Sequence record: OM630585.1
Source of the DNA: Escherichia phage vB_EcoM_LNA6
Reading direction: 5' to 3' (one strand)
DNA: 64,000 nt
Of the stretch, positions 17,089 to 41,662 are shown in pieces (the first letter of the stretch is position 1; each line of letters begins with the position of its first letter). Made by a program: the position numbers and the translations under genes. The notes beneath the pieces are model-generated. The model ran no database searches. It was not told the DNA's origin and worked only from the letters and a program-made list of their open reading frames with translations.

Positions 17089-17566
17089 AGAATACCTGCA
17101 CTATGACCCCGAAACAGGGGTCTTTACTTGGTTAGTTGGTAGAAAAGGTAAGGCCAAAGCTGGCTCAGTAGCAGGTCTTAAACATCATAGTGGTTATATC
17201 TATATAAAACTCTTCGGAAAAAGATATGCAGCACACAGACTGGCATTCTTGTATATGAAAGGATACCTCCCAAAATTTGTTGACCACAAAAATGGTATCA
17301 GGCACGACAACTGGTTCGACAATTTGAGAGAGTGTAGCAGGTCAGACAACAACTGCAATGCAGTCAAAAGAAAAGATAATAAGTCTGGTGTGAAGGGTGT
17401 ATATTACCACAAGCAAAGAGGTAGATGGGCTGCACAAGTCAAGCATAATAAAGTATGCTACCATCTAGGTTTATTTGACTCTATCACTGAGGCTGAATCA
17501 GTTGTCAAAAAGAAAAGAGAAGAACTCCATAGAGAGTTTACAAATCACGGAGAAGCTCATGAATGA
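17066..17566 (+). CDS. HNH homing endonuclease with AP2-like domain
   Basis: HRLAFLYMKG...VDHKNG HNH core plus SGVKGVYYHKQRGRWAAQV AP2-type DNA-binding motif; paralog of 31108..31599; start uncertain. Confidence 0.65.
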   Translation: MLTQQTLKEYLHYDPETGVFTWLVGRKGKAKAGSVAGLKHHSGYIYIKLFGKRYAAHRLAFLYMKGYLPKFVDHKNGIRHDNWFDNLRECSRSDNNCNAVKRKDNKSGVKGVYYHKQRGRWAAQVKHNKVCYHLGLFDSITEAESVVKKKREELHREFTNHGEAHE

Positions 17567-22293: not shown

Positions 22294-23363
22294 TTAACCA
22301 GCACCCAATCTTTTTAGGTGGTGAGAGAAAAACTTTTGACTCACTTAATAAGCACTACCCAAAAATCTTTGAGCTTTATAAACAACAAAAAGCACAAGAT
22401 TGGTCAGAAGATGAGTTCCCTTTTGAACAATCACGTCTTGATTTTGAGAGTGTCCCAGCATCAATGTCAGGTGTAATGCTTGAGATTCTTAAGTGGCAAT
22501 GGGAAGCAGACACTCAAGTTGCTAAGAGCTTGGCATTTGCCTTTGCACCCTTTATCTCTGATGACATCTATGCAACTGCAATTATGAAGCAGTCTGAGAT
22601 TGAAAACCTACATGCTCTTACTTACTCAGAGATTGTAAGACAATGTATTAAAAACCCTGAAACAATCTTAGATGAGATTAACCAGAATGTTGCTGTGCAA
22701 GACCGATTAAAAACTGTGAATCGTGTTCTTGAAGAATTACTGGATGAAGGTATAAACTATCGTCTGAGTTATGTTCGTGATTCACTTCTGGACAAAGACC
22801 CTTTACACTTCCATAAAGTGATTCTGAAAGGGCTGTTTGCAGTGACTGCACTTGAAGGTATATCTTTTATGGCATCATTTGCATGTACTTTTGCACTTGA
22901 TGCTCAAGATAAATTTCAGGGTATTGCTCAAGCGGTACAGAAAATTATGCTTGACGAAATCCTTCACACTAAAATTGATATTGAAGTTTTAAAAGAAACT
23001 TTAAGAGATGATGAGTGGCAGAAAGCTTTTCAACAAATTCTTCCAGAGATTAAAGTAATCTTAGATGAAGTAGTTGAAAGTGAAGAGAAATGGTCGTATT
23101 ATATCTTCTCCGAAGGACGTGCTGTAGTTGGCCTAAATACAAAGCTTCTTCATGAGTGGGTTTACTATAATGCTGCCCCATTGTATGATATGTTTGGCAT
23201 TCCCAGAGATTTTGTAGCTCCTAAAGAACCACCTTTGAAGTACATGATTAAGAAGATGGAAATTGATAAAGAGCAGAATGCTAATCAGGAGCAACAGAAC
23301 GGTGCGTACCTATTGAATACTGTTGTAGATGATTTGAATAGTGGATTTTTAGAGGTTCCTTAA
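22291..23363 (+). CDS. nrdB: ribonucleotide reductase class Ia beta subunit
   Basis: About 357 aa with conserved E/H-rich di-iron helices; start at ATG after AAAGGAGA RBS. Confidence 0.85.
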
Positions 23364-23605
23364 TGACTTATGTAATTTACTCCAAAACTGGATGCCCTCA
23401 GTGTGAGACTGCAAAGAATTTTGCAAAAGCTCGTGGTATTGACCATGTTGTGAGAATGTTAGGGCAGGACTATGAGCTATCAGACCTGATGGATATTGCA
23501 CAGATGCCAGTTCGTCAGATGCCATTCATCATGAAAACTGATGGACAAAACCTAAAACCTGTTGGTACGCTACAGAATTTTATGGCAGAGGTGAATAATG
23601 CTTAA
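23363..23605 (+). CDS. glutaredoxin-like protein
   Basis: 80 aa with CPQC redox motif; overlapping start with nrdB stop. Confidence 0.65.
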   Translation: MTYVIYSKTGCPQCETAKNFAKARGIDHVVRMLGQDYELSDLMDIAQMPVRQMPFIMKTDGQNLKPVGTLQNFMAEVNNA

Positions 23606-23804
23606 ACGCCTTTGGGAAGGTTTGGTTGTTGATGCACCAGCTATTGTGATTGGTATGCTTATTGTTAACCTATTTACTGACTTTGAACAAGGTTCATTGT
23701 TTGGAGCTATGTTACTATGGGTTATCTTTGAAATATTAGAGATACAGTTAGGTATAACTGAAAAACTAAGAGAACTCTTTTCGAAGTTTTCTAAAAAGAT
23801 TTAA
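23598..23804 (+). CDS. small membrane protein
   Basis: 68 aa hydrophobic ORF. Confidence 0.3.
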   Translation: MLKRLWEGLVVDAPAIVIGMLIVNLFTDFEQGSLFGAMLLWVIFEILEIQLGITEKLRELFSKFSKKI

Positions 23805-23810
23805 AATGAA

Positions 23811-23833
23811 AGGGTCTCTTCGGAGACCTTTTT
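23811..23833 (+). terminator. intrinsic terminator
   Basis: gggtctcTTCGgagacc hairpin + TTTTT. Confidence 0.6.
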
Positions 23834-23852
23834 AGCATGTAAAGGGGCAATA

Positions 23853-25049
23853 ATGAACAAAGTACAGATTATTAAAAAGAACGGCTCACTTGAAGAACCT
23901 GATATCAAAAAAGTTTTAGCAGCAGTCACAAAGTCAGCTAACAGAGTTGGTTATAAAGAGCTTCCACCAGATGTTACTCAAGCTCTTGAGTCAGCATTTA
24001 TGAGGATTCTGGTAAAATCTACTAAGCAGAATAATTTACTCGTTTCAGTAAATGATATTCACAGTATTGTTGAGGGTGCTTTGGCAGAAGTCAATCACGA
24101 GATTTATGAGTCTTACTCAACATATAGAAATTACCGTAAAGAGGTTGCTCAAAATTGGGATGAACTTTACCAGAAGACCAAAGATACACTCTTCTTAGGT
24201 GACCGAGAAAACGCTAATTTTGACAGCAGTTTAATTTCTACAAAAGGTTCAATTATTCGTGGTTACCTGACTAAAGAAATCTTTAAACAGTACCACTTAA
24301 CACCAGAGGAACTTGAAGCCATTGAAAAAGGGTTTATTTATATCCATGACTTAAGAGACCTAATTTTTGGTGGTATCAACTGTTGTCTGTTTGACATTGG
24401 TAAAGTGCTGAAAGGTGGCTTTGAAATGTCTGGCATTGAATATTGTGAACCGAAGTCTGTACTGTCAGCATTACAGGTTATTGGCGATGTAGTTCTTTCA
24501 GCAACTGCACAGCAATTTGGTGGCTTTACTTTAGCAGAGATTGATAAGGTACTTGTACCGTATGCTAAAAAATCTTTAGTGTACCACTCAGAGAAAGCTG
24601 AAGAGTACGGAATCCCTAAAGAGCAACACTATAATTACGTAATGGAGCAATTACAGAATGAGTTAACACAAGGTTTCCAATCTCTTGAAATGAAACTTAA
24701 CACTGTTCCTTGCAGTCGCGGTGATTTTGCATTTACTACTCTGACATTTGGTCTGTTGGAACCAGATATGCACAATGAAGATAACCGTCTTCAGTTTATG
24801 ATTGCCAATACAATCCTTAACGTAAGGATGAACGGGCAAGGAAAAAGCAAAAAACCTGTTGTGTTCCCTAAACTTGTGTATATCTATGAAGAAACGAGAC
24901 ATAAGCTTGATGTATGCCAAGTAAGGTTGTTTGAAAAAGCTATTGAGTGTTGCTCTAAAGCTATGTATCCAGATTTCTTAAGTGTATCTGGTCATGGTGC
25001 TGTAGCAGAGGCTTTTGAGCGTTCTGGTAAGGTAATTTCCCCGATGGGT
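23853..25049 (+). CDS. nrdD: anaerobic ribonucleotide reductase, exon 1
   Basis: N-terminal ATP-cone; ends ...KVISPMG and continues in frame as CRAFLSPYH... at 25792. Confidence 0.8.
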
Positions 25050-25791
25050 TAACAAGCTCTATAGCTCATCTAAAACGTGCCTAAACAGGGAAACTCTACA
25101 GATGTAGACAATCCTGTGCTAAATGATGTACGATGTAAGAAACTATACAACATAGGAGTCTTACATGCCAAACTATCACGTCACTGAAGATGGAAAAGTC
25201 TTTAGGGAAAATGGTGTAGAGCTTACGCAGTGGAAATCCAACACTGGGTATATGAAAGTGAGGTTTTACGGTAAGAAGAATCGTGACATGTATGTCCACA
25301 GGTTAGTTGCTGAGAAATATGTACCTAACCCGAACAATCTTCCAATTGTAAAACATAAGGACGATAACAAACTAAATAACCACGTATCTAACTTAGAATG
25401 GGGTACTCATTCTGAGAATGCTAAAGAAGGTTATGAGAATGGATGCTACAAGTTCCACAAGCGTTCATATGCCGTGAAAGCCACACACAAAGTGACAAAG
25501 GAAGTTATTGTTACTAAGTCAATACGAGAGTTATCCAATATACTTGGATACAATCGCAAGACCATCTCTTCAATATTGAAGGGTGTAAAAGAGCATAATA
25601 ACTTCGAATATGAGTTTGAATACATCTAAATGCCGAACGACTAACCGTGATGAATGTAGCGGTGTAGGGTCAAGCGACTCGAAATGGTACGCTACTTAGA
25701 AATAAGTAGAAGATATAGTCTGGACTTACTGGCGACAGTAAGCAGCTTGAATAAAGCGGGGTAAGCTTAGCGAACTTACCTGAACAATAAG
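25050..25791 (+). other. putative group I intron in nrdD
   Basis: 742 nt between exons; exon 1 ends in T, intron ends in G, spliced product is colinear NrdD; carries an HNH ORF. Confidence 0.6.
25165..25629 (+). CDS. HNH homing endonuclease (intron-encoded)
   Basis: 154 aa; HRLVAEKYV...NN...N HNH-type motif, AGGAG RBS; inside nrdD intron. Confidence 0.7.
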   Translation: MPNYHVTEDGKVFRENGVELTQWKSNTGYMKVRFYGKKNRDMYVHRLVAEKYVPNPNNLPIVKHKDDNKLNNHVSNLEWGTHSENAKEGYENGCYKFHKRSYAVKATHKVTKEVIVTKSIRELSNILGYNRKTISSILKGVKEHNNFEYEFEYI

Positions 25792-26739
25792 TGTAGAGCA
25801 TTTTTATCACCATACCATAACGAATATGGTGAAGAGTTTTATGTAGGTCGTGCTAACATTGGTGCTGTATCTTTGAACTTACCAATGATTTACCAGTATT
25901 CTAAAGAGAAGGGCTTAGATTTCTGGAAAGAGCTTGATAAGTACCTAGAGATGATTCGCAGCTTCCACAAGAAACGCTACGAAATGATTGCTAATATGCC
26001 AGCAAGTTCTAACCCTCTTGCATTCACACAAGGTGGTCTGTACAAAGGGACTAAGAAACCTACTGACAAGGTTGGTTGGGATATCGTGAAGTCCTTCACA
26101 GCTTCTTTTGGGGTTACTGCTCTTGATGAACTGTCTGTTCTTGCTGAAGGTAAACGACTTCATGAAGTTGGAAGATATAGTTTTGCATACGATGTTCTGG
26201 AATACATCAACATGAAAACTGAAGAGTTTAAGAACGAAGATGGCTTCTTGTATGCGGTATATGGCACTCCAGCAGAATCACTTTGTGGAACTCAGTTAAA
26301 ACAGTTCAGAGATATGTTTGGCGTTATTAAAGGTGTCTCTGACAAGGAATACTTTACAAACAGTTTCCATATGAATGTTGCAGCAGACATCTCACCATTT
26401 GAGAAGCAGGACTTAGAAGAGCCATTCTTCCATATCTGTAGAGGTGGCAGAATCCAGTATGTAAGGGTAGCTAACCCAGAAAACTTAACAGCACTTAAAA
26501 GTTGTATTACCAGAGGGATGTTGAAGGGTTTTTATCAGGGACTTAACTTTAACTTAGCAATCTGTGAACATTGTGGTAACAGACCAAAGGCTGATGTTGA
26601 AGAATGTGAGGTTTGTCATTCACACGATATCTCTGTGATTAACAGGGTGTGCGGATATTTGGGATGGACTAAGATTAAAGGTGAATCCCGAATGAATGAT
26701 GCAAAAATCGCTGAGATTCGTGACAGAATTTCTATGTAA
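25792..26739 (+). CDS. nrdD: anaerobic ribonucleotide reductase, exon 2
   Basis: C-terminal CEHCG...CEVC zinc site and RVCGYLG glycyl-radical motif. Confidence 0.8.
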   Translation, partial: CRAFLSPYHNEYGEEFYVGRANIGAVSLNLPMIYQYSKEKGLDFWKELDKYLEMIRSFHKKRYEMIANMPASSNPLAFTQGGLYKGTKKPTDKVGWDIVKSFTASFGVTALDELSVLAEGKRLHEVGRYSFAYDVLEYINMKTEEFKNEDGFLYAVYGTPAESLCGTQLKQFRDMFGVIKGVSDKEYFTNSFHMNVAADISPFEKQDLEEPFFHICRGGRIQYVRVANPENLTALKSCITRGMLKGFYQGLNFNLAICEHCGNRPKADVEECEVCHSHDISVINRVCGYLGWTKIKGESRMNDAKIAEIRDRISM

Positions 26740-26750
26740 AACTTGACAAG

Positions 26751-27137
26751 GTGATGTGGGTCTTGATAGGCTTACATCACCTTTTTATTTGGAGTTACAT
26801 TATGGACTTGTGGCTTTATGTAGCAGCTTGTGGGATTGTATGTCTGATAATCTTATTTATTCTTGGAATAATGCGATTTAGAGACATAATACAGTCAGAT
26901 TTTTTGCCTGAGTTTGCCATGATAGTTGGGGTTATTGCCCTTTGTGTCTTGGCAGTGTTCTATTCATACAAAACTGTGATATGGATGGAGGCAAACAATT
27001 GTGTAAAAACTCATCAGCATCGTGAGGTTACTCATTTTGTGAGTGTACTTAGTGGTAGCACCACTATACTTGTCCCACAAACTTCTGTAGAGTATCTTTA
27101 CACATGTGATAATGGTAAAACTATATGGTGGAATTAA
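26751..27137 (+). CDS. membrane protein (hypothetical)
   Basis: 128 aa with hydrophobic segments. Confidence 0.35.
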   Translation: MMWVLIGLHHLFIWSYIMDLWLYVAACGIVCLIILFILGIMRFRDIIQSDFLPEFAMIVGVIALCVLAVFYSYKTVIWMEANNCVKTHQHREVTHFVSVLSGSTTILVPQTSVEYLYTCDNGKTIWWN

Positions 27138-27340
27138 CAATGACAACAATCTTAAAGGTATTGACACCCATACTACACATAGTAATCTTCTTCTTTGGTG
27201 TTAGTGTTATGGTATGGGGTTTTTCAGACCCACAATGGAATTTCTCATATCATGGTAAGATGGATTTATGGTCATGCTTCAAACCATTTTTAGGGTTAGC
27301 TATAGCATTCAGTGCATTACCAACTAAGGTGAAATTATGA
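27125..27340 (+). CDS. small membrane protein (hypothetical)
   Basis: 71 aa, two hydrophobic segments. Confidence 0.3.
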   Translation: MVELTMTTILKVLTPILHIVIFFFGVSVMVWGFSDPQWNFSYHGKMDLWSCFKPFLGLAIAFSALPTKVKL

Positions 27341-27732
27341 TTAAGTTAAACCAAAAACAGTTAGAGTGGATTAAAGATTACGCCTCAGAGTGTGGCTCTT
27401 GCGAAAAGAATCACGTAAGATACTCAACATTCCACACGGTCTTCACATTGTACATCAGCGACAACGTTCTAAGTGATTCTGTAGAAGATGGTGTAGCATT
27501 ACCTAATGAATTACTTGATAAACTGGCTGTAGTCTCTGGAACTTGGTCTGAAGAGGATGGTCATGAGCTATCTGACGATGTTATCTTCTACACCCTTGAA
27601 AACATCATGAATCCAGAGTACATTATGCTAATGACTTGCGCACAAGATTGTGTACCATTACAAAACTTCATTAAAGAGCACTGTGAAGAATTTATTACTA
27701 AACAGGTTCCTTGTCAGGTGGTGTTTGAATGA
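27337..27732 (+). CDS. hypothetical protein
   Basis: 131 aa ORF. Confidence 0.4.
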   Translation: MIKLNQKQLEWIKDYASECGSCEKNHVRYSTFHTVFTLYISDNVLSDSVEDGVALPNELLDKLAVVSGTWSEEDGHELSDDVIFYTLENIMNPEYIMLMTCAQDCVPLQNFIKEHCEEFITKQVPCQVVFE

Positions 27733-28028
27733 GTAAAACAATTCGAAGAAAAGGTTTAAAGAACGTTCATGGGCTTTATGAGTGGAGAAATGAGGTACGT
27801 AACAGAGAAAACGCTTCAGATGTCTACTTCCATTCTGATATGATGTCCAGAAAAGGTGGCTCTTATGACTTTACAAGCCAACCTTGTAGAGAGATTAAGA
27901 AGGCTACTAAACGTCTTACAAGAACACAAATAAGGCAGCTTACTAAGACATCTTTCTTAGATGAATACTTTGACATTGACAGCAAGTCTCCAAAGAAAGC
28001 TGCTCAGAGCACTTATATGTATTGGTGA
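27729..28028 (+). CDS. hypothetical protein
   Basis: 99 aa basic ORF. Confidence 0.4.
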   Translation: MSKTIRRKGLKNVHGLYEWRNEVRNRENASDVYFHSDMMSRKGGSYDFTSQPCREIKKATKRLTRTQIRQLTKTSFLDEYFDIDSKSPKKAAQSTYMYW

Positions 28029-28037
28029 GGTAACTAG

Positions 28038-28523
28038 ATGAATTACATGGAGATTAGACCATTTGACACAGCTAATGGTGAAGGGGTTCGTGTAAGCCTC
28101 TTCGTAGCTGGCTGTAAACATCACTGTGAAGGCTGCTTTAACAGGGAGTCTTGGAAGTTTAATGCTGGTAAAGTATTTACTTATGCAAACCTCTACGGCA
28201 TCATTAAGTTAATGGATGATGAGGCCATCAGTGGGTTGTCAATACTTGGTGGGGAGCCTCTGGATGATAGAAACATTCAAGAGGTCACCAACATATGCAA
28301 ACGTATTAAAACTGTTTATCCAGAAAAGTCTATATGGCTTTGGACAGGTTTTCAACTGCACGAAAAAATCCACTTAGATGTGATGAAATATGTTGACGTG
28401 GTGATTGATGGTAAGTATGATTCATCTAAACCAACAGTTAAACCATATCGTGGTTCTGATAACCAAAACCTCTGGAGAAAAGAGTATGGATGGCAAGGTG
28501 ATTGTCAATGGCGAGCAGAGTGA
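28038..28523 (+). CDS. nrdG: anaerobic ribonucleotide reductase activating protein
   Basis: N-terminal radical-SAM Cys cluster (CKHHCEGC) and overall NrdG size. Confidence 0.8.
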   Translation: MNYMEIRPFDTANGEGVRVSLFVAGCKHHCEGCFNRESWKFNAGKVFTYANLYGIIKLMDDEAISGLSILGGEPLDDRNIQEVTNICKRIKTVYPEKSIWLWTGFQLHEKIHLDVMKYVDVVIDGKYDSSKPTVKPYRGSDNQNLWRKEYGWQGDCQWRAE

Positions 28524-28761
28524 TTATTCTGGCAAATGGACTTACGACATCAACAAGTTAGATGCTTGGATGATTTATACGAGAGAAAAATTTGGTGCAA
28601 GTTCATTATGTGCTCTTGCAACGATGGTGAAGAACGTTACCTTTGACATTCATGACTCAGATAAGTTTGGAGACTTCTACAGGATTCAAAACATCAGAGA
28701 AGGTATGACTCCAATTGGTATCACTGAAGAAGAACTTCATAAGTTCTGTATTAAACTTTAA
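28489..28761 (+). CDS. hypothetical protein
   Basis: ORF overlapping nrdG end; start uncertain. Confidence 0.3.
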   Translation, partial: DGKVIVNGEQSDYSGKWTYDINKLDAWMIYTREKFGASSLCALATMVKNVTFDIHDSDKFGDFYRIQNIREGMTPIGITEEELHKFCIKL

Positions 28762-28776
28762 TGAGAGAGACTAAAA

Positions 28777-29043
28777 ATGGGAATTTTAGGTAATATGAAA
28801 GCTGGATTCTTGAAAGCACTGGAAAAAGCAGCAGCAATCATTTCTATGACTGGAAAGCAGGTTGGTGTCGATGCTTCAGCAGTTGCACAAGTTCTTGCAA
28901 GCCAAATTGAACAGCAGCCTTACATCTACGTAGGACGTGGAAAAGGTGGTAAAAAACAAGCACATCGACCAACTGGTGCAGCAGCAATTAAACGTGCAGC
29001 TAAGAAAGCTCGTAACCGTAAACGTAATAAGAAGGCTAAATAA
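28777..29043 (+). CDS. small basic protein
   Basis: 88 aa, Lys/Arg-rich C-terminus. Confidence 0.35.
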   Translation: MGILGNMKAGFLKALEKAAAIISMTGKQVGVDASAVAQVLASQIEQQPYIYVGRGKGGKKQAHRPTGAAAIKRAAKKARNRKRNKKAK

Positions 29044-29045
29044 TC

Positions 29046-29366
29046 ATGAGCAAAGTTTATAACACTCGCAAATTACAGATTTTCGTACTGTGCCAGTTTA
29101 TGGCTAAAGAATACAACTTCTACTATTGTGGTACAGGTTTTATTAGTGATGATGATGGCTCATACCTCCCATTCAAAGAGGCTGTAAAACTCTTCAATGA
29201 AGAGAAAAGCTCTGAGAAAGATATTGAAAAGGTTAAATTAACCTATAGTAAGAAAGATAAGAAGATTATCTGCCTAGATAACTTTGTAAAAGTTACTGGA
29301 GAAGCAAAAGAGTTTATGGATGAGAGTGAGATTTCATTCACAAGCATCTTGAAAGTAGCTCAGTAA
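29046..29366 (+). CDS. hypothetical protein
   Basis: 106 aa ORF. Confidence 0.4.
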   Translation: MSKVYNTRKLQIFVLCQFMAKEYNFYYCGTGFISDDDGSYLPFKEAVKLFNEEKSSEKDIEKVKLTYSKKDKKIICLDNFVKVTGEAKEFMDESEISFTSILKVAQ

Positions 29367-29420
29367 AAAGATACTATAAGGGGGCTGTAAAGGTTCCCTT
29401 TTTATTTTTGTGGAGATACT

Positions 29421-29936
29421 ATGTACCTGTCAAACCTGAAACGTTCGGCTGCAATGTCAGTGTTAAGACTCAGCTTTGAGGAACGTCAAGAGTTCATTGA
29501 CTCCCACCAATACGACCCCTCAAACTCCAATCACATGATTCTCTGGAATCGTGAGAGTACTCGTGAAAGAGCATTATTCCGATATTACCCATACTACACC
29601 ATAGATAACCTGTATGAATGTTTTGTTGTGAAGAACACCATTACAGTGCTCAATAAACTTTGCAGATACACAGGTAGTCAATCCTTCACATTAGGCCACC
29701 ACAAACCTGTTACAAAAGGTGGTGAACATCACTGTGCAAACTGGTTTATCCAAACTAAAGCTGATAACCAGAAGCAAGGAGATAGCCTCCTAAGTACACC
29801 TAAGATGACCTATGAAGAGCAAGAGAAATATATCAAAAACAATATGCCAGATGTGCTTGACAACAACTATACAGATTTGGCAATATCTCTCCTGTTGAAG
29901 TTCGAGACAGTTTATAGGGCAACTTATAATGGCTAA
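29421..29936 (+). CDS. hypothetical protein
   Basis: 171 aa ORF. Confidence 0.4.
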   Translation: MYLSNLKRSAAMSVLRLSFEERQEFIDSHQYDPSNSNHMILWNRESTRERALFRYYPYYTIDNLYECFVVKNTITVLNKLCRYTGSQSFTLGHHKPVTKGGEHHCANWFIQTKADNQKQGDSLLSTPKMTYEEQEKYIKNNMPDVLDNNYTDLAISLLLKFETVYRATYNG

Positions 29937-30258
29937 AGAGAAGTGGGAGATTTTACCATTAGTCAGTGAAGGTGGTAATGGTTGTGAGATGTACATGATA
30001 CGTGGTCATGTTCCAGAACCAATTGCACTTGAGATGGTAAACAACTTTACAGATGGTTCTTACAAAGACTTAGGCGAACCAACTGTCAAGCAACAATGGG
30101 TTAAACCTGTACCAGACAGCACAGGTAACTGTAGTGTACTTTATCACGTTGTAGACCCTGCAAAATGCAAATCTGCAATGGCAGTAACAAACGTAACTTT
30201 GATTGAGAGAGAAAACTATGAAGACATCTATCCGTGTTACAGTTCATTCACCAACTAA
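29929..30258 (+). CDS. hypothetical protein
   Basis: 109 aa ORF. Confidence 0.35.
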   Translation: MAKEKWEILPLVSEGGNGCEMYMIRGHVPEPIALEMVNNFTDGSYKDLGEPTVKQQWVKPVPDSTGNCSVLYHVVDPAKCKSAMAVTNVTLIERENYEDIYPCYSSFTN

Positions 30259-31099
30259 AGGAACTCATGAAGAGGAGTTTAACATCATCCAATTTCCTTC
30301 TGGTGAGATTGGTGGACACTTTTCGCCAGAGTTTGTTGATTTCACTGCTTATGCAGCATCATCCATCAACAATGTGATTATGATTGTAAAAGGTTATGAT
30401 AAGGATACATTGTTTGCTGTTGCACTTGCTAAAGAAGCAATTGATGATTTAGTCCCTCATGACTATGCCTTAAAGACTGTCATCTTTTACTACTTACCAA
30501 ATGCACGTTATGACCGTCACATGTTTAAAGGTGACGCAGCAGCTTTAAAGGTTTTTGCTAAACAGGTAAATGCAATGGGATTTGGTGCAGTCTGTGCAGT
30601 TGACCCTCACAGTTACGTTCCAGATAACCTGTTTAACTGCTTCCAGAGTATTCCTCAAAAGGAGATTGCAGTTCACTACGCAAATGACCCACTGATTGAT
30701 TACTTAGTAGCCCCAGATGCAGGTGCTTCTAAGAAGATTGCAGAGACTGCTAAAGAGGTGGATAAACCATACATCACAATGTCTAAAGTACGCAACCTCA
30801 AGACTGGTGAAATTACTGGTATGCGAATCCTTGACGATGTTGATTTGACAGATAAAACCGTCATGATTCTTGATGATATCTGTGATGGTGGTCGAACCTT
30901 CGTAGAGGCAGCTAAACACCTACGTGAAGCAGGTGCAAAACGTGTTGAGCTTTATGTAACACATGGTATCTTCTCTAAAGGTGTTGAAAACCTTCTTGAC
31001 AACGGTATCGACCATATTTACACTACAAACTCTTTAGGCGAAGCTAAAGACCGTGGCTTAACACATTATAGTCAAGTTACTGTAGCAAATTTGGATTAG
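30218..31099 (+). CDS. ribose-phosphate pyrophosphokinase-like protein (candidate ADP-ribose pyrophosphokinase Adps)
   Basis: About 293 aa; type I phosphoribosyltransferase motif MILDDICDGGRT; Prs-like size; next to NadV homolog. Confidence 0.7.
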   Translation: MKTSIRVTVHSPTKGTHEEEFNIIQFPSGEIGGHFSPEFVDFTAYAASSINNVIMIVKGYDKDTLFAVALAKEAIDDLVPHDYALKTVIFYYLPNARYDRHMFKGDAAALKVFAKQVNAMGFGAVCAVDPHSYVPDNLFNCFQSIPQKEIAVHYANDPLIDYLVAPDAGASKKIAETAKEVDKPYITMSKVRNLKTGEITGMRILDDVDLTDKTVMILDDICDGGRTFVEAAKHLREAGAKRVELYVTHGIFSKGVENLLDNGIDHIYTTNSLGEAKDRGLTHYSQVTVANLD

Positions 31100-31107
31100 G
31101 TATTAAA

Positions 31108-31599
31108 ATGGATAAGGGTTACTTCGAAAAATACCTAATATACGAACCGGAGACAGGTTTACTAATTTGGAAAGTAACCCTTTGCAATACCGCTATTGCT
31201 GGTAATGTTGCTGGCACAAGGTCTAAGAAGGGTTATATCCAAGTCCAGATAAATAAGAAGAGGTACTATGCACATAATATTGCATGGATTATGTCTGGAG
31301 GTGAGATACCAAGTGGATATGAGATAGACCACATAGACCTTGATAAATCTAATAATAAGTTGGAGAATTTAAGACTTAGCACAAAGTCACAAAATCAGAG
31401 GAATAGGGGTATATACAAGAATAATAAAACTGGTGTGAAGGGTGTAAGTTTTTGTAAACAAACAGGTCTTTACAAAGCAAGAGTCATGCTTTACCATAAA
31501 GAATACTTTTGTGGAAGATTTAAAACGGTAGAAGAAGCAAAAGAAGCTGTAATTAAAAAGCGAATAGAACTTCATGGTGAGTTTGCAAGACATAACTAA
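31108..31599 (+). CDS. HNH homing endonuclease with AP2-like domain
   Basis: YAHNIAWIMSG...IDHID HNH core and TGVKGVSFCKQTGLYKARV AP2-type motif; inserted between Prs-like and NadV-like genes. Confidence 0.7.
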   Translation: MDKGYFEKYLIYEPETGLLIWKVTLCNTAIAGNVAGTRSKKGYIQVQINKKRYYAHNIAWIMSGGEIPSGYEIDHIDLDKSNNKLENLRLSTKSQNQRNRGIYKNNKTGVKGVSFCKQTGLYKARVMLYHKEYFCGRFKTVEEAKEAVIKKRIELHGEFARHN

Positions 31600-31613
31600 G
31601 AGAGAGATAAAAT

Positions 31614-33395
31614 ATGAGTAAGTCACTTTACGCAGTACCAGCAGGTCTTAATGCAGATGCTTACAAGGCATCACATATATATCAGTATCCAGATGCTACG
31701 CAATATCTTATGTTGAACCTGACACCACGTAGTGACAAATGGTTTAACAGCCCCTTAGCAATTGATGGTGTAGTAGCTTTTGGTATTCAACGTTTCGTTA
31801 AAGATTACTTGATAGACCACTGGAACGCCACTTTCTTTGAACGTGATAAAAAAGAAGCCATTGATGAAATCTTAGAAGTCATGAACGGTGTTCTGGGCAA
31901 AGATGCTATTGGTCGAGAGCATTGGGAAGCACTTCACGACTTAGGTTATCTGCCAGTCGAAGTATACGCTGTAGAAGAAGGCACAGTTGTTCCGATGCGT
32001 GTCCCAATGATTGCCTTCCAGAACACTGTTTCAGGATTCCATTGGGTAGCAGGTTATCTGGAAGATGCTTTCTCTGCTGAGATTTGGAAGGCTTGCACTA
32101 TTGCGACTATTGCATTGCACTACAAACGTATCTGTAAGAAGTGGGCTGACCTTACTTGCGACAATGAATTACATTTACCTTATCAGTGCCATGACTTTGC
32201 TATGCGTGGTATGTCCGGCTTTACCGATGACGCATTTAATGCTGTAGGTCACTTAACCAGCTTTAAAGGAACTGATAGCTTCCCTGCTGTATACACGGCT
32301 AAACGCATCTATGGACAGTCTTACCCAATTTCTGATATTGGTAGTTCTGTACCAGCCACTGAACACTCTGTAATGTGTGCAAATATTGCTTGGGAAGGTG
32401 GTAATGAATTGATTGAAGAAGAAAGACGCTTTAAAGGTGAGTTGCAAACCTTCCGTCGTTTCTTAACAGAAACTTACCCAACTGGTATTGCAAGCATTGT
32501 GTCAGATACTTATAACTTCTGGAGAACTGTGTCAGAAATCTTACCAGCACTCCGTAAAGAAATTATGGAACGTGACGGTAAGCTGGTAATTCGCCCTGAC
32601 TCTGGAGACCCTGTACATATTGTCACAGGTTATAAAGCAATCCACTTAGAGTGTGCTAAAAAGGCTTATTACGAGCACCTAAGCAAGCTGGAAGCTAGTG
32701 ATACAATGCTGAACTCTGTTCTGAACATGAAGCTTGAAAACATCAACTATGGTATTGCTGGATGGCTACTGTCAGAAGGCTACGAAATGGTTGTTGACCG
32801 AGAAGACTTTGAAGTTGCTGATACAGTGATGTTGAAAAATGCTTATATGGTTGGTTCTGCAAACGTTGTAACACGTCCTGTAGCAGAGATTGATGGAGCT
32901 ATTAAGACCCTGTATAACATCTTCGGAGGAACTATCAACTCTAAAGGTTTTAAGGTACTGGATGAGCACATTGGACTTATCTATGGTGACTCTATCACAC
33001 TGGAACGTGCAAACGAAATCCTGAAGCGTCTGTATGAAATGGGTTTTGCAAGCTCTAACGTAGTGTTTGGCGTAGGCTCTTACACTTACCAGTACATGAC
33101 TCGTGACACCTTTGCATTTGCTGTTAAAGCAACTCTTGCAAGCATTGGTGGTAAAGAGATTATGCTTGCAAAAGACCCTAAAACAGATAGTGGTGTGAAG
33201 AAGTCTGCCTTTGGTGGTGTAGCACCTATGTGGGATGGTGATAAGCTGAAAGCTGTAGATGGCTATGGGTTCCAGAGCTTTGCAGATGCACTTGAACATC
33301 CAGCTTGTGCTCTACGCTTAGTCTTTAGTGATTCTGAGCAGTATGGTTACACATCTCTTGGTGATATTCGAAATAATATTGACAAACAGCTTTAA
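31614..33395 (+). CDS. nicotinamide phosphoribosyltransferase family protein (NadV/Namat-like)
   Basis: 593 aa; N-terminal YKASHIYQYP and overall Nampt/NadV architecture. Confidence 0.8.
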   Translation: MSKSLYAVPAGLNADAYKASHIYQYPDATQYLMLNLTPRSDKWFNSPLAIDGVVAFGIQRFVKDYLIDHWNATFFERDKKEAIDEILEVMNGVLGKDAIGREHWEALHDLGYLPVEVYAVEEGTVVPMRVPMIAFQNTVSGFHWVAGYLEDAFSAEIWKACTIATIALHYKRICKKWADLTCDNELHLPYQCHDFAMRGMSGFTDDAFNAVGHLTSFKGTDSFPAVYTAKRIYGQSYPISDIGSSVPATEHSVMCANIAWEGGNELIEEERRFKGELQTFRRFLTETYPTGIASIVSDTYNFWRTVSEILPALRKEIMERDGKLVIRPDSGDPVHIVTGYKAIHLECAKKAYYEHLSKLEASDTMLNSVLNMKLENINYGIAGWLLSEGYEMVVDREDFEVADTVMLKNAYMVGSANVVTRPVAEIDGAIKTLYNIFGGTINSKGFKVLDEHIGLIYGDSITLERANEILKRLYEMGFASSNVVFGVGSYTYQYMTRDTFAFAVKATLASIGGKEIMLAKDPKTDSGVKKSAFGGVAPMWDGDKLKAVDGYGFQSFADALEHPACALRLVFSDSEQYGYTSLGDIRNNIDKQL

Positions 33396-33398
33396 AAG

Positions 33399-33421
33399 TA
33401 TATGATAAGAGGCTCCTACGG
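33399..33421 (+). terminator. intrinsic terminator
   Basis: gaggctccTACGggagcctc hairpin + TTTTT after NadV-like gene. Confidence 0.6.
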
Positions 33422-33448
33422 GAGCCTTTTTAATTTCTGGAGAAGACT

Positions 33449-33784
33449 ATGAAAATCAAAGAAATGAACATTAACGTTGTCCTAGAAGAACGTTGGGAGA
33501 ACATTAAGAAACCTGAAGATGGTAAAAAGTTCCTTAACAAAATTTTAGTAGCAGCTAAAGAAGAACTGACTGGCAAGATTGCAGCAGCAATCACAATAAA
33601 AATCTGTGTAAAAGGTCTTCCACAACATCACCAATTTGCACTTGACGAGTTTAAAGAAAGCTTCTACAATCCAAACAAACAGATGCTTGAAAGTAACTTT
33701 GCAGTGTCTACAAGTATCGTCCATGACAGAAGCTTTATCCTTTACAAGAATATGAGAGGTGAGTCATGCAAGCATATTGGATAG
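33449..33784 (+). CDS. hypothetical protein
   Basis: 111 aa ORF. Confidence 0.4.
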   Translation: MKIKEMNINVVLEERWENIKKPEDGKKFLNKILVAAKEELTGKIAAAITIKICVKGLPQHHQFALDEFKESFYNPNKQMLESNFAVSTSIVHDRSFILYKNMRGESCKHIG

Positions 33785-33942
33785 AAATTTTACTGTCACT
33801 TGGTAGTGTAGCAGTATTTGTTTACCTTCTTTGCAAGTACTATGCAGAGCACAAGAAGTGTGACTACTGTAACGGAGAAGGGTACACAAGAGCAGGCTGT
33901 TGCCCTATGTGTGGTGGTTCTGGTAAAATGTTTAATAAGTAA
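33766..33942 (+). CDS. small membrane-anchored protein with DnaJ-type zinc finger (CxxCxGxG x2)
   Basis: 58 aa; N-terminal hydrophobic helix then CDYCNGEG...CPMCGGSG; below ORF-track cutoff, read manually. Confidence 0.35.
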   Translation: MQAYWIEILLSLGSVAVFVYLLCKYYAEHKKCDYCNGEGYTRAGCCPMCGGSGKMFNK

Positions 33943-33970
33943 TTTAACAGTAAACTAAGAGGAAAGTATT

Positions 33971-36337
33971 ATGCGCATGGTAAATGACCACGCAGAAGTG
34001 ATTAAGAGTTCAACTTCTTTGGAGACATCTCAAGCACAGATTACAATGACACCTGAAATGTTCAGCCTTCTGAGTTCTGGTGTATACACATTCAAAGAAA
34101 GGGCAGTGATTCGTGAACTGTCATGTAATGCAGTAGATGCTCAGAAAGAAGCTGGAAAAGAGAACATCCCATTCCATGTGCATTTACCTACTCGATTTGA
34201 GCCTTACTTTGAAGTCCGTGACTTTGGAACTGGTTTAACCCATGACAAAGTAATGAGTTTGTACCTGAACTATGGGGCTTCTACGAAGAATGACTCTAAT
34301 GATTACATTGGTGCAATGGGTATCGGCTCAAAATCACCATTTGCAATTGCTCAGTCATTCACAGTGTCTAGCTATGTTGATGGTGTTGTTAATAAGTACT
34401 CTGTTTACCTTGAGAATGGTATACCTCAAGTAACTAAGCTTACTACTAACCCAACAAATGAACCCAATGGTTTAGCTGTACGTGTGGCAGTTGCTGACCA
34501 CCGTATTTCAAAGTTCTTTGAAGAGGCTGGTCATGTATACTCATACTTTGCTGTAAAACCAGAAAGTAACATTGTATATGATGATGTGTTAGCAGATATG
34601 AACGTCATTGCTCGTGAAGAAGGTGTTTATGATGCCATGATTCATAAGCAAAGCTGGCGTTCTAGTGGTAACAGGACAGAGTTTAATGTGGTGATGGGTA
34701 ATATTGCCTACCCTGTTAACATGGAAGCATTACTTGGTGATGATTTCTTCAAAATCTTGCCAGAATTTTTCCGTAGGAGCGTAGACCTTGTAAACATCTA
34801 CATGCCTATTGGTTCAGTTGCTATTGCAGCTTCTCGTGAAGCATTACAGATGAATGACACGACAAAAAATGTTATCATTGAGGCTACTAAAAAGATAACT
34901 GAAGCCATTACAAAGGATGTTATCAAGAAAGTTAATAGCCAACCTACACTCATGGATGCCGCACAGGCTTATGCTGAGTTACGTTTGAACTCACGAGAGA
35001 TGTTTAATGCTGTGTGTCCAAAGCTAGAGTGGGGTGGCGTTAAGCTTGATTCTCTGGAAGAAGAATTGCTAAACATTCGTCGTGGAATTATCTACGCAGA
35101 AGACGGCTCAGTTATTTATGAACGTGACGGCAAAGGTAATATTAAGGTTGATAGGAACGGGAACAATATCCCTAAAGTAGATTATCTTTATGACCCAGTT
35201 GCTTATGTCAAGTTCAACTCTTTAGAGAGTAAGATTCGTGCAACATCGCTTTCCTACACTCAAGAGGCAAGTATGTTCAATATCTTTGGTGCAATGCGTA
35301 AAAGCCAAATTGAACAGTTTTTGTTTGTTATAAATGACCGTCGCAATAAAAATGGTACTGAGAAGACTGTAGGACGCAATCAGATTCTGCGTGGTGCATG
35401 TCGAGACTATGCCAGCGAGTCAAGCCTGTTTCACAGATATAATGGTATTGTCTTTGTATTCTCTACAGAGAAAGAGCTAGATGACTTAATCAATCTGCGC
35501 AAACTTGATAAGAGCTTGTTAAAGATTGTGAAGATGTCTGATAAGGAACACCATTATCAGCGTAAAGAAGCTGTGAGAGGTGTTGTAAAACTCTGGAAAG
35601 CTGTTCCAGCAGAAGGTGTAGCCTCATACACAGAGGTGTCAGAAGACTTAGACACGATTGAAGAGCCTCAGCTTTATATTAAGGCAGTAGGTGACACAGT
35701 TGATGGCGAATGTTTTTGCTCATCTCCAGATGATGTAGCTAAGTCAGTTGCCAATGTCATTGGAAAGACAGTCTATGTTTTCCGAAAAGCAAATTGGAAA
35801 AAGATACCAGAAGACTGGATTGAAGTAGATGAGAAGCTCTTGAACGACAGCTTAACTGATGTTCATTGGATTAATCATAACAGGTATATGACACGCGTCT
35901 GTATGCGTGGTGTCCTAGACCTTACAAGCTGTTGGATTATTACCAGAAACTTTACGTTCAATAACAGGAAGATTTCTGATGGTTATTGCTATTCACGGGA
36001 TACAAACAAAACTATCTTCCTAGAAGGTAATGAAGATGCTGTTGAGGCAATGTTCGGTAAAATCCAATACATTGCTGCACAATTTGCATACACTTACACT
36101 ATTAGTGTGTTGCAAGATTTGAAAAGGTGTCTTGATAATGATACAAAACTTTACAAGAAAATTAAGAAAGCTGGTGACCGTATGTTTATTAAGGTAACAA
36201 ACTACTTCTCAAAAAGAAAACAAGAAAACTTCTTGCTTTCTCATCTAGATTGGAATAAAGTGTCACCCGTCGAAGTAAGTAAGTTCTTAGGCTTTGATGT
36301 GAAGTGTGTTCCAGAAGGAACTACAATTTACGATTAA
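33971..36337 (+). CDS. rIIA: rIIA-like protein (GHKL ATPase domain)
   Basis: 788 aa; VIRELSCNAVDA (N-box), RDFGTGL and GAMGIGSKSPF resemble T4 rIIA ATPase motifs (from memory). Confidence 0.75.
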   Translation: MRMVNDHAEVIKSSTSLETSQAQITMTPEMFSLLSSGVYTFKERAVIRELSCNAVDAQKEAGKENIPFHVHLPTRFEPYFEVRDFGTGLTHDKVMSLYLNYGASTKNDSNDYIGAMGIGSKSPFAIAQSFTVSSYVDGVVNKYSVYLENGIPQVTKLTTNPTNEPNGLAVRVAVADHRISKFFEEAGHVYSYFAVKPESNIVYDDVLADMNVIAREEGVYDAMIHKQSWRSSGNRTEFNVVMGNIAYPVNMEALLGDDFFKILPEFFRRSVDLVNIYMPIGSVAIAASREALQMNDTTKNVIIEATKKITEAITKDVIKKVNSQPTLMDAAQAYAELRLNSREMFNAVCPKLEWGGVKLDSLEEELLNIRRGIIYAEDGSVIYERDGKGNIKVDRNGNNIPKVDYLYDPVAYVKFNSLESKIRATSLSYTQEASMFNIFGAMRKSQIEQFLFVINDRRNKNGTEKTVGRNQILRGACRDYASESSLFHRYNGIVFVFSTEKELDDLINLRKLDKSLLKIVKMSDKEHHYQRKEAVRGVVKLWKAVPAEGVASYTEVSEDLDTIEEPQLYIKAVGDTVDGECFCSSPDDVAKSVANVIGKTVYVFRKANWKKIPEDWIEVDEKLLNDSLTDVHWINHNRYMTRVCMRGVLDLTSCWIITRNFTFNNRKISDGYCYSRDTNKTIFLEGNEDAVEAMFGKIQYIAAQFAYTYTISVLQDLKRCLDNDTKLYKKIKKAGDRMFIKVTNYFSKRKQENFLLSHLDWNKVSPVEVSKFLGFDVKCVPEGTTIYD

Positions 36338-40876: not shown

Positions 40877-41662
40877 ATGGGTATTGTAAAAATCATCAAT
40901 GGGGATATCTTCTCCGCATTTGATAAAGGTAAGTTTGATATTATTGGTCACGGTTGCAACTGTATGAATTTAATGGGTGCAGGTATCGCTGACAAGATTT
41001 CTAAACTTTACCCAAAAGCATATGAGACCGATACAGAAGTTTATCTGTATGCAGGTGGCATAGGCCACAAACCCTGTGAAAATTTACTAGGGAATTTCTC
41101 TGTAGCACGTTTAGAACAAGGCCGTATAGCTAACCTTTACACACAACTTCATACTGGTAAAGATGCCAGATACAGTGCTTTAGAGTCATCTTTGAAGAAA
41201 CTTAACAGGTACTGTGAAGTCAATCAGTTGAAGAAAGTCGGGTTACCTATGATTGGCGCAGGTATCGGTGGACTAGACCCTCAAGCCGTCACAGTTATCA
41301 TTAATCAGGTGATGAAGAGTGTAGATGTTTATCTGTATGTCTACGAAGGAGAGATGTACCACAAGTTACGCTCAGGTTGGAATAACTACTGTGAACCAGA
41401 ATACTTTGCAGGTGTAGTAATGTTCACAGATGATACGGTTACCCTCTTCAGACGAAGAAAAGGTAAGATACATCAAAGTAACCCTCCGGTTGAAAAGATG
41501 TCTCTAAGTAACGCTCTAGTTACCCACCTGTCAAAGAGCAATCACAGAATTGCTGTAACATTTGGTAGTGATGCAGAAGCTTATATCTATGCAAGAACTG
41601 ATGAGGATATCGAGGCAATCTTCTCTTCACCAGAAGTTACCTTCTTAGACGCAAAGAACTAA
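40877..41662 (+). CDS. macro-domain protein (ADP-ribose binding/processing)
   Basis: 261 aa; N-terminal IINGDIF...IIGHGCNCMNLMGAGIA matches macro-domain core. Confidence 0.6.
   Translation: MGIVKIINGDIFSAFDKGKFDIIGHGCNCMNLMGAGIADKISKLYPKAYETDTEVYLYAGGIGHKPCENLLGNFSVARLEQGRIANLYTQLHTGKDARYSALESSLKKLNRYCEVNQLKKVGLPMIGAGIGGLDPQAVTVIINQVMKSVDVYLYVYEGEMYHKLRSGWNNYCEPEYFAGVVMFTDDTVTLFRRRKGKIHQSNPPVEKMSLSNALVTHLSKSNHRIAVTFGSDAEAYIYARTDEDIEAIFSSPEVTFLDAKN

Follow-up and report, generated by a model that had tools for sequence, protein, structure and literature searches.

A probable NARP1 operon, interrupted by a putative homing endonuclease gene, in the Felixounavirus vB_EcoM_LNA6

A stretch of 64,000 nucleotides of Escherichia phage vB_EcoM_LNA6 (OM630585.1), a Felixounavirus (FelixO1-like phage), was analysed and is called the window below. 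In all probability, its positions 30218-33395 are a NARP1 operon into which a selfish free-standing HNH homing endonuclease gene (HEG) has been inserted without inactivating it. The locus is assigned to Bas63-type NARP1 because its two enzyme genes are orthologues of genes 79-80 of phage Bas63, the operon whose deletion, together with metabolomics, revealed NARP1 (10.1101/2024.02.11.579819; Osterman et al., 'Phages reconstitute NAD+ to counter bacterial immunity'). NARP1 (Adps + Namat) is already characterised and Felixounavirus is the genus of the published prototype, so the locus is not new. The features considered are the following.

29378..29400, + strand: terminator-like hairpin (pattern scan; 9-bp stem, then a T-run), presumed to bound the probable transcription unit on its upstream side
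29421..29936, + strand: conserved ORF of 171 aa, orthologue of bas63_0077 (phrog_3500, E=1e-91), in the same probable transcription unit as adps and namat
29929..30258, + strand: conserved small ORF of 109 aa, orthologue of bas63_0078 (phrog_4726 covers aa 1-91 of 92)
30218..31099, + strand: adps, putative ADP-ribose pyrophosphokinase of NARP1, 293 aa (orthology to Bas63_0079; annotated 'ribose-phosphate pyrophosphokinase')
31090..31613, + strand: homing-endonuclease cassette (junction alignment), which stands in place of the last ~10 nt of adps and a hairpin spacer
31108..31599, + strand: putative free-standing HNH homing endonuclease gene (HNH_3 + AP2-like), 163 aa (Pfam and PHROG matches)
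31614..31715, + strand: divergent 5' part of namat, linked to the HNH gene and covering codons 1-34 (identity and dS contrast)
31614..33395, + strand: namat, putative nicotinamide ADP-ribose transferase of NARP1, 593 aa (97% aa identity to Bas63_0080; annotated 'nicotinamide phosphoribosyltransferase')
32637..32894, + strand: inserted alpha/beta domain of Namat, 86 aa, aa 342-427 (missing in SPbetaL1 Namat, in Nampt and in 496-aa bacterial homologues)
33407..33430, + strand: intrinsic-terminator-like hairpin that starts 12 nt past the namat stop (10-bp stem, then TTTTT; folding energy -16.6 kcal/mol, z=-3.3)

A Prs-like gene, an HNH gene and a gene of the Nampt family had been predicted here from the sequence alone, and the ORF listing places all three on the + strand at the coordinates foreseen; they have strong family matches and are not chance ORFs. 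The genes adps and namat run in the same direction, separated by 514 nt that contain a single HEG, and the arrangement of this pair recurs in ~259 phage records found in a search of related phages. As in Bas63 (JohannRWettstein), also a Felixounavirus, the locus follows nrdG and precedes rIIA, with the same neighbours, and the two enzymes have the same lengths, 293 and 593 aa, in both phages. The small ORF at 29929..30258 consists of 109 and not ~92 aa because its T-run has one T fewer than that of HY02 (TTTG in the window vs TTTTG in HY02), and it therefore overlaps the start of adps. The preceding ORF, 29421..29936, gave a weak HNH-like match to phrog_2214 (E=1e-4), and neither a Macro nor a RyR domain was found in it by the domain scan. 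An Rfam scan of 23000-35000 for riboswitches and group I introns yielded nothing at the gathering threshold. Sigma-70-like promoters around the locus were barely in excess (20 matches vs 13.9 +/- 3.7 in shuffled sequence) and were discarded.

The start of adps at ATG 30218 agrees with that of Bas63 and is preceded by the ribosome-binding motif GAGAGAGA, both of which disfavour the alternative upstream start, TTG 30203. The protein is 79% identical to Bas63_0079 in a gap-free alignment and 98% identical to the HY02 and KhF2 proteins. The proposed comparison with characterised enzymes and with canonical Prs also pointed to Adps, with 34% identity over 195 aa to the biochemically characterised SPbetaL1 Adps vs 22–24% to E. 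coli Prs. Its K190 is aligned to the essential lysine K162 of SPbetaL1, which corresponds to the catalytic lysine K197 of B. subtilis Prs; R192 and the motifs FPSGE, NARYDR, DPHS and DDICDGGRT are kept as well. The longer motif LDDICDGGRT, noted in the original prediction, is indeed present at aa 218-227 (nt 30869-30898). The protein matches phrog_619 (E=1e-97), and its best 120 database relatives are of Adps size (~280–300 aa) and belong to phages and a few enterobacteria. Taken together, these features would assign the product of 30218-31099 to the Adps clade of phages and set it apart from cellular Prs.

The second enzyme, predicted as a 593-aa protein of the Nampt family, is encoded by an ORF of exactly this length and matches Pfam NAPRTase (E=6.7e-35) together with NAMPT_N, phrog_448 (E=1e-201) and NCBIfam PRK09198 (471 bits, cutoff 405). 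Its best PDB sequence matches are the Namat structures 9w5w and 9w5x (6e-129), ahead of human Nampt (1e-41), and the closest fold to its AF2 model (pLDDT 92.6) is 9w5x, with a TM score of 0.95 normalised to the crystal chain. The residues F195, R198, D221, H251, R327 and D329 are invariant in an alignment of 28 sequences and aligned to 9w5x, the reference core of SPbetaL1 Namat being F189, R192, D215, the catalytic His, R306 and D308.

The 'selectivity clamp' motifs by which Namat recognises ADPR-PP have been tested by mutagenesis (PMC12774641). The clamp helix (SCH) follows the pattern GS-X-Phi-X-Phi-X-Phi-TRD, in which motif positions 3 and 7 are aromatic, and the window protein has GSYTYQYMTRD at aa 488-498, with Y490 and Y494 at these positions and Met at Phi3, where Asn or Val is usual. 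The corresponding segments are GSFTYQYNTRD in SPbetaL1 Namat, GAQTYQRNTRD in the true Nampt HdNadV, with Q and R at positions 3 and 7, and GGALLQKVDRD in Xcc Nampt. In the clamp loop (SCL), the adenine-stacking residue is Arg at position 3, or Lys/Tyr is followed by a stacking residue. The loop of the window protein, PRSDKWFNSPLAIDG with the K42-W43 pair, is the same as that of Bas63, as is the clamp helix; its SDKWF segment conforms to this pattern, and stacking is predicted from the Lys and the residue next to it described for Bas63. Orthology to Bas63 genes 79-80, equal lengths, synteny and these motifs uphold the earlier suggestion that the pair resembles NARP1.

Between the two genes, the HNH-AP2 homing endonuclease was found as foreseen, with strong matches to Pfam HNH_3 (E=1.6e-19) and phrog_99 'HNH endonuclease' (E=3.5e-69) and an AP2 match (E=4.7e-4) weaker than the Pfam cutoff. 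The window and FelixO1, which carry the HNH gene, were aligned with Bas63, HY02, KhF2 and Mordin, which lack it and have a 45-nt hairpin spacer instead, and the junctions of the cassette proved precise. Only 60 of the ~259 related phage records carry the gene, about three quarters of the related genomes being without it, and so the endonuclease has probably invaded a conserved operon, as was originally proposed. In FelixO1 and ~59 other Felixounavirus and Mooglevirus records, the adps-HNH-namat layout and the junctions are identical to those of the window and the HNH genes are 91–100% identical (at least 99% in six of the 60 HNH-bearing records). A tract of 100% identity at ~30920-31720 is common to the window, skuden and D4, with flanks only 90–96% identical. 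The first 34 codons of namat, which differ from Bas63 as an HNH-linked haplotype, show 96% nucleotide identity to FelixO1 vs 75–77% to genomes without the HNH gene, and dS is 1.2–1.4 in them vs 0.22 across the remaining gene. This tract is probably a homing-site or co-conversion region. Free-standing HEGs of T-even phages (Seg/Mob-type) likewise sit between conserved genes, are present or absent from one phage to the next, and take flanking markers along in co-conversion; the window gene differs from them in its HNH_3 + AP2-like architecture. From such patterns, we infer that this ORF is a free-standing homing endonuclease, with its nuclease activity and target site predicted on the same grounds. 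An HNH paralogue, 40% identical, is located at 17042-17566 of the window.

Both adps and namat are intact beside the cassette, each with its own GAGAGAGA motif. The hairpin of the HNH-less spacer (GGGGCUU-GAAA-GCCCC in Bas63) folds with ~-11.5 kcal/mol; it was rejected as a full terminator, the stem being followed by just four U residues, and was considered as a weak terminator or RNA stability element. Loss of this hairpin and the insertion of ~500 nt could alter the Adps:Namat expression ratio.

The C-terminal catalytic half of Adps is ~99% identical to that of Bas63, and the N-terminal ~150 aa exist as two deep alleles, the commoner one in the window and the other in Bas63; over codons 1-150, pN between the window and the tested Bas63 protein is 0.21. 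Positive selection on the divergent N-terminus was rejected, with pS of 0.8 (saturated synonymous sites) and dN/dS well below 1, and the two alleles are therefore considered ancient and exchanged by recombination. The conserved motifs suggest that the N-terminal half in the window is functionally equivalent to that of Bas63. A link between allele and HNH presence was also rejected: the window, which has the HNH gene, groups with HY02 and KhF2, which do not, and FelixO1 differs from the window in sharing its allele with HNH-less Bas63. Phages with and without the HNH gene thus occur in both allele groups, which makes the distribution of this gene independent of the Adps allele.

It may be asked whether the two enzymes rather perform canonical salvage, similarly to NARP2, with a true PRPP synthetase feeding a true Nampt to give NMN and an Nmnat of host or phage finishing the synthesis. 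The names of the Pfam, PHROG and NCBIfam families read Prs and Nampt, and every related GenBank record is annotated accordingly. However, Adps exceeded the cutoff of the broad TIGR01251 subfamily model only and failed all NCBIfam Prs equivalog cutoffs, scoring 43–103 bits on equivalog and subfamily models with cutoffs of 296–536 bits, and the window Namat has the clamp residues of Namat, not those of HdNadV. In a host mutated in both pncC and nadR, Bas63 remained able to overcome SIR2-HerA, ADPR-PP was found in Bas63-infected cells, and the SPbetaL1 Adps gave no product from ribose-5-phosphate (10.1101/2024.02.11.579819). The Nampt proteins of NARP2 group in a clade of their own, from phages without Adps; here Adps is adjacent, and neither Nmnat nor a Nudix domain was found among the scanned neighbours. 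Canonical salvage is, therefore, very improbable as an explanation of the locus. Namat keeps PRPP-dependent NMN synthesis in vitro (PMC12774641), and some canonical activity is thus possible.

With regard to the inserted gene, a functional role as third member of the pathway, comparable to that of the Macro phosphatase Adpp or the RyR-domain glycosidase RyDEP in other NARP1 operons, is suggested by the accessory genes that other phages have between or beside adps and namat. This reading hardly deserves credence, since the protein combines a DNA nuclease (HNH_3) with an AP2-like module for DNA binding and has no fold that handles ADPR, the functional operon of Bas63 and most related genomes do without the gene, its complete identity within diverged flanks and its linked flanking haplotype are hallmarks of mobility, and a paralogue is present elsewhere in the window. 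The weak AP2 match might rather indicate a decayed remnant that is no longer homing and merely persists. This is also unlikely: the ORF is full length, and at least five phages of different national origin share it without a difference although their flanking genes have diverged by 4–10%, a pattern that indicates that the gene has spread horizontally in recent times while selection kept its ORF intact. A presumably active mobile HEG within a NARP1 operon remains the preferred reading.

According to the proposed mechanism, NAD+-depleting defences, among them SIR2-HerA/Nezha, type I Thoeris, DSR1/2 and SEFIR, split NAD+ into ADP-ribose (ADPR) and nicotinamide; Adps (30218-31099) would pyrophosphorylate ADPR with ATP to ADPR-PP, and Namat (31614-33395) would combine ADPR-PP with nicotinamide directly into NAD+, with no need of the host NMN salvage. 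These activities and the anti-defence effect are established for the orthologues and, by analogy, are expected in this phage. The Bas63 deletion mutant no longer overcame SIR2-HerA, and the Bas63 protein 'did not purify well', the biochemistry (ADPR + ATP to ADPR-PP, then with nicotinamide to NAD+) having been performed on SPbetaL1 enzymes (10.1101/2024.02.11.579819), which are 32–38% identical to the window proteins. The HNH gene would have taken the place of the small conserved hairpin in the adps-namat spacer and most likely spread by cutting HNH-less genomes near the 3' end of adps or the 5' end of namat during co-infection, after which repair would copy the HNH gene in along with ~100–200 nt of flank.

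The locus shares gene order, catalytic Lys and Arg, clamp motif and fold with SPbetaL1 (PDB 9w5w, 9w5x). The SPbetaL1 Namat differs in its length (491 aa), in the lack of the 86-aa insert and of a ~15-aa insert (aa 259-273), and in having Arg40 in the clamp loop vs Lys42-Trp43 in the window. In NARP1-AP (Adps-Adpp-Namat; for example in Vibrio phages Gary and River4) and RyDEP loci, a third gene also lies within the operon; in the window, this gene encodes a putative nuclease and not a Macro or RyR enzyme. To count as NARP1-AP, a locus must have a Macro gene no more than two genes away from adps or namat, and the domain scan of ORFs 28777 to 33942 found none of the Macro/Adpp and RyR/RyDEP accessory domains. 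In the original NARP1 study, namat was in the immediate vicinity of adps for 97% of Adps-clade genes.

NARP1 defeats a whole class of NAD+-depleting immune systems, which makes it relevant to the choice of therapeutic phages, and felixounaviruses are widely proposed as biocontrol agents of Salmonella and E. coli. The window provides no new principle and adds one more member of the prototype's genus with an intact copy of NARP1; ~250 GenBank records still bear the outdated names 'ribose-phosphate pyrophosphokinase' and 'nicotinamide phosphoribosyltransferase'. In our opinion, the added value consists in the anatomy of the HEG insertion, with mobile nucleases possibly shuffling anti-defence operon alleles, in the two deep N-terminal alleles of Adps, and in two leads concerning a Macro protein that might act in trans and the Namat insert. 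Separately, the HEG at the adps-namat junction may drive exchange of anti-defence operon alleles between co-infecting phages. Both this and the idea that Felixounavirus NARP1 is larger than the two published genes are tentative and rather doubtful.

The sole Macro-domain gene found, Adpp-like and unlinked, is situated at 40877-41662, 7.5 kb downstream of the locus. Its product is a homologue of the Adpp-type phosphatase that Vibrio phage River4 encodes inside its operon, and could supply an ADPR-1''-phosphate phosphatase in trans. If so, the phage would gain NARP1-AP-like resistance to aRES, and the published screen of two genes on each side of NARP1 would have missed Macro genes of this type. 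The 86-aa insert of Namat, which is Ounavirinae-specific, could add regulation or partner binding.

The locus at 30218-33395 consists of three real open reading frames with strong family matches in Pfam, PHROG and NCBIfam, and the outer two, likened to the NARP1 pair by the original prediction from the sequence alone, proved to be ungapped orthologues of genes 79 and 80 of phage Bas63 (record MZ501086, Felixounavirus), with identities of 79% for Adps and 97% for Namat. The Bas63 genes encode 293 and 593 aa and have the same neighbourhood. The features of the locus are as follows.

29378-29400, terminator-like hairpin, upstream edge of the ORF171-ORF109-adps-HNH-namat unit
29421-29936 (+), ORF171, 171 aa, conserved, heads the NARP1 transcription unit; phrog_3500
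30218-31099, adps-like ORF, 293 aa from the ATG, Pribosyltran and Pribosyl_synth domains; phrog_619, E=1e-97
31108-31599, HNH ORF, 163 aa, HNH_3 (E=1.6e-19), AP2 sub-threshold; phrog_99, E=3.5e-69
31614-33395, Nampt-family ORF, 593 aa, NAPRTase and NAMPT_N domains; phrog_448, E=1e-201; NCBIfam PRK09198, 471 bits (cutoff 405)
33407-33430, terminator-like hairpin, downstream edge of the same unit

The ATG of adps at 30218 is preceded by GAGAGAGAAAACT and matches the Bas63 start; an alternative TTG lies at 30203. In a database search, 259 phage records matched the 3.7-kb region with a best identity of 95.6%, almost all of them Felixounavirus or Mooglevirus (Ounavirinae) from Escherichia, Salmonella, Shigella and Citrobacter. 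The gene order of the window is that of FelixO1 and Bas63: nrdA, nrdB, split nrdD, nrdG, the NARP1 locus, rIIA, rIIB and a 26-gene tRNA array.

Genes 79-80 of BASEL phage Bas63 (JohannRWettstein) are the pair in which NARP1 was first recognised; Bas63 without them becomes sensitive to SIR2-HerA, ADPR-PP was seen only with wild-type Bas63 in defence-carrying cells, host pncC and nadR are dispensable for the effect, and, since the Bas63 protein was hard to purify, the SPbetaL1 homologues served for the biochemistry (bioRxiv 10.1101/2024.02.11.579819). Judged by sequence comparison, the window pair is orthologous to this experimentally defined system, which goes beyond mere resemblance. NARP1 combined with a selfish homing endonuclease gene very probably explains the locus; direct observations are the orthology, the fold, the intact catalytic and specificity residues, and the layout of the HNH insertion with its presence or absence among relatives. 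The two enzymes would turn ADPR into ADPR-PP and then NAD+, and the rebuilt NAD+ would counter depletion of the SIR2, TIR and SEFIR types. The NARP1 system, its mechanism and its presence in Felixounavirus are already published, and dozens of GenBank entries, FelixO1 among them, already contain the three-gene layout under incorrect annotation.

The comparison with canonical Prs and Nampt placed both proteins with Adps and Namat, an assignment that rests on identity, motif, profile and fold comparisons. Window Adps retains the catalytic motifs of Prs, namely FPSGE, NARYDR, DPHS and DDICDGGRT (LDDICDGGRT being aa 218-227) and passes one Prs model, the broad subfamily TIGR01251 (121 bits vs cutoff 113); with the Prs equivalog and subfamily models having cutoffs of 296-536 bits it reaches only 43-103 bits. 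Its identity to E. coli Prs is 22-24%, and both the N-terminal helix insertion and the C-terminal tail of Prs are missing. Identity to SPbetaL1 Adps is 34% over 195 aa, with K190 aligned to the essential K162. A search of 5.8 billion sequences gave as its best 120 relatives Adps-sized proteins, encoded by phages or, in a few cases, by enterobacteria; of 50,697 phage records, 1319 contain Adps-like genes.

According to structural work on SPbetaL1 Namat, the enzyme combines a catalytic core of the Nampt type with two further elements, an adenine "selectivity clamp" helix specific to Namat (GS-X-Phi-X-Phi-X-Phi-TRD, with aromatic residues at motif positions 3 and 7) and a variable clamp loop giving one further stacking residue, described in Bas63 as a Lys-then-next-residue stacking variant (PMC12774641). 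Window Namat has the core residues F195, R198, D221, H251, R327 and D329, the clamp helix GSYTYQYMTRD (aa 488-498; GSFTYQYNTRD in SPbetaL1) and the same loop as Bas63, PRSDKWFNSPLAIDG, whereas the genuine Nampt HdNadV and Xcc Nampt have GAQTYQRNTRD and GGALLQKVDRD at the clamp position. A PDB sequence search ranked Namat (9w5w/9w5x, 6e-129) before HdNadV (1e-105) and human Nampt (1e-41), and for the AlphaFold2 model (pLDDT 92.6) the nearest fold is 9w5x (TM score 0.95, normalised to the crystal chain). Canonical Prs/Nampt salvage, with which the family names in Pfam, PHROG and NCBIfam would agree, is considered very improbable.

A role of the HNH protein in the pathway is most improbable in our opinion. 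The gene lies between adps and namat in 60 related records (FelixO1 among them) and is missing from the remaining ones, including Bas63, HY02, KhF2 and Mordin. Both neighbouring ORFs are intact. The predicted homing endonuclease is supported by this polymorphism, by the cassette junctions and by three signatures of mobility; of the HNH-AP2 architecture, the HNH part stood and the AP2 match stayed below threshold. HNH-less genomes have a 45-nt spacer with a conserved hairpin (stem GGGGCU/AGCCCC, variable loop, about -11.5 to -12.6 kcal/mol); downstream of it come AUUUU and the ribosome-binding motif GAGAGAGA. The hairpin, at 15641-15656 of the Bas63 locus (L007) and also in HY02, KhF2 and Mordin, is missing at ~31100 of the window; in HNH-containing genomes the cassette replaces the whole stretch that begins ~10 nt ahead of the adps stop and ends just short of GAGAGAGA. 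The phages skuden, pinkbiff, vB_SflM_004, D4 and I14.1 share the window's HNH ORF at 100% identity although their flanking genes are 90-96% identical to those of the window, and perfect identity in skuden and D4 extends over roughly 30920-31720. Over the first ~100 nt of namat, identity of the window to FelixO1, which also has the HNH gene, is 96%, vs 75-77% to the three genomes lacking it; the rest of namat is about 93-99% identical among all compared genomes. The dS of 1.2-1.4 in this 5' tract, vs 0.22 in the rest, with dN/dS well below 1, points to an old haplotype travelling with the element, in sequence terms a classic co-conversion or immunity-site pattern. The selfish enzyme would cut HNH-less alleles near the adps-namat junction.

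Candidate roles of the spacer hairpin are weak termination, RNA stability or processing. Another HNH/AP2-type endonuclease at 17042-17566 (+) is 40% identical to the 31108-31599 paralogue (tblastn E=3e-30), and an HNH_3 ORF (25165-25629) separates the two pieces of the anaerobic ribonucleotide reductase gene nrdD (23853-25052 and 25873-26739), so the window has at least three HNH homing-endonuclease genes. The Bas63 annotation gives nrdD as a joined CDS accompanied by a homing endonuclease; within 23853-26739 of the window, an Rfam scan gave no group I/II intron at the gathering threshold.

Two deeply diverged N-terminal adps alleles occur across the genus (codons 1-150, window 30218-30670), with a breakpoint at ~nt 276-450: nucleotide identity is 58-64% over the first ~300 nt, ~80% by nt 450 and 90-100% in the C-terminal half. 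The window carries the commoner allele, common to HY02 and KhF2 (98% aa); the other, of Bas63 and FelixO1, is somewhat nearer Mooglevirus. Because synonymous sites are saturated, the divergence is ascribed to old lineages recombining, not to rapid adaptation. Which allele a phage carries is unrelated to whether it has the HNH gene.

In Ounavirinae-type Namat an alpha/beta insert of 86 aa (aa 342-427) is predicted with confidence, and structure search detected no relative of it; a smaller insert lies at aa 259-273. SPbetaL1 Namat and Nampt lack both, as do the 496-aa homologues from bacteria. These Namat-like bacterial proteins, with clamp GSFTYQYNTRD, and ~285-aa Adps-like proteins (database hits P0066, P0072, P0109, P0190 and P0222) lie on chromosomal contigs of Klebsiella, Cronobacter, Erwinia, Kosakonia and Superficieibacter, in agreement with reported bacterial NARP1 homologues.

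ORF171 and ORF109 are kept in Bas63 as genes 77-78, and domain and family searches assigned no function to them. ORF171 contains an HNH-like sequence (HHKPVTKGGEHHCANW...NQKQ) with a weak HNH-endonuclease PHROG match (E=1e-4). The small ORF at 29929-30258 exceeds its length in relatives by 17 codons (site 30203-30258) and overlaps the adps start, owing to a T-run that lacks one base (TTTG vs TTTTG in HY02); either true variation or a sequencing error in the homopolymer may lie behind this.

Macro (Adpp) and RyR (RyDEP) domains extend NARP1 in other phages; none was found in the neighbours of the locus. The published Adpp screen covered only two genes either side of NARP1, and a Macro protein is encoded farther away.

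40877-41662 (+), Macro-domain protein, 261 aa, orthologue of bas63_0095 "putative phosphatase"; phrog_335

Its N-terminal Macro domain (PF01661, 32 bits, cutoff 22) is 30% identical (E=6e-17) to the Vibrio phage River4 phosphatase, encoded between adps and namat in the NARP1-AP layout, and both share distant matches to TARG1/OARD1 and DarG-type macrodomains; the ~100-aa C-terminal part matched no family. The protein is a candidate for an Adpp acting in trans, or alternatively for an enzyme directed against DarT. Since the family occurs in 2854 phage records, T4-like phages included, its role may be general and a NARP1-specific one is only hypothetical. Records MG065664.1 and MG065668.1 ("Campylobacter phage A132/A126") contain adps, namat and Macro genes almost identical to those of Felixounavirus (up to 99.7-100% aa; hits H105, H152, H191 and H256), which suggests mislabelled or contaminated entries.
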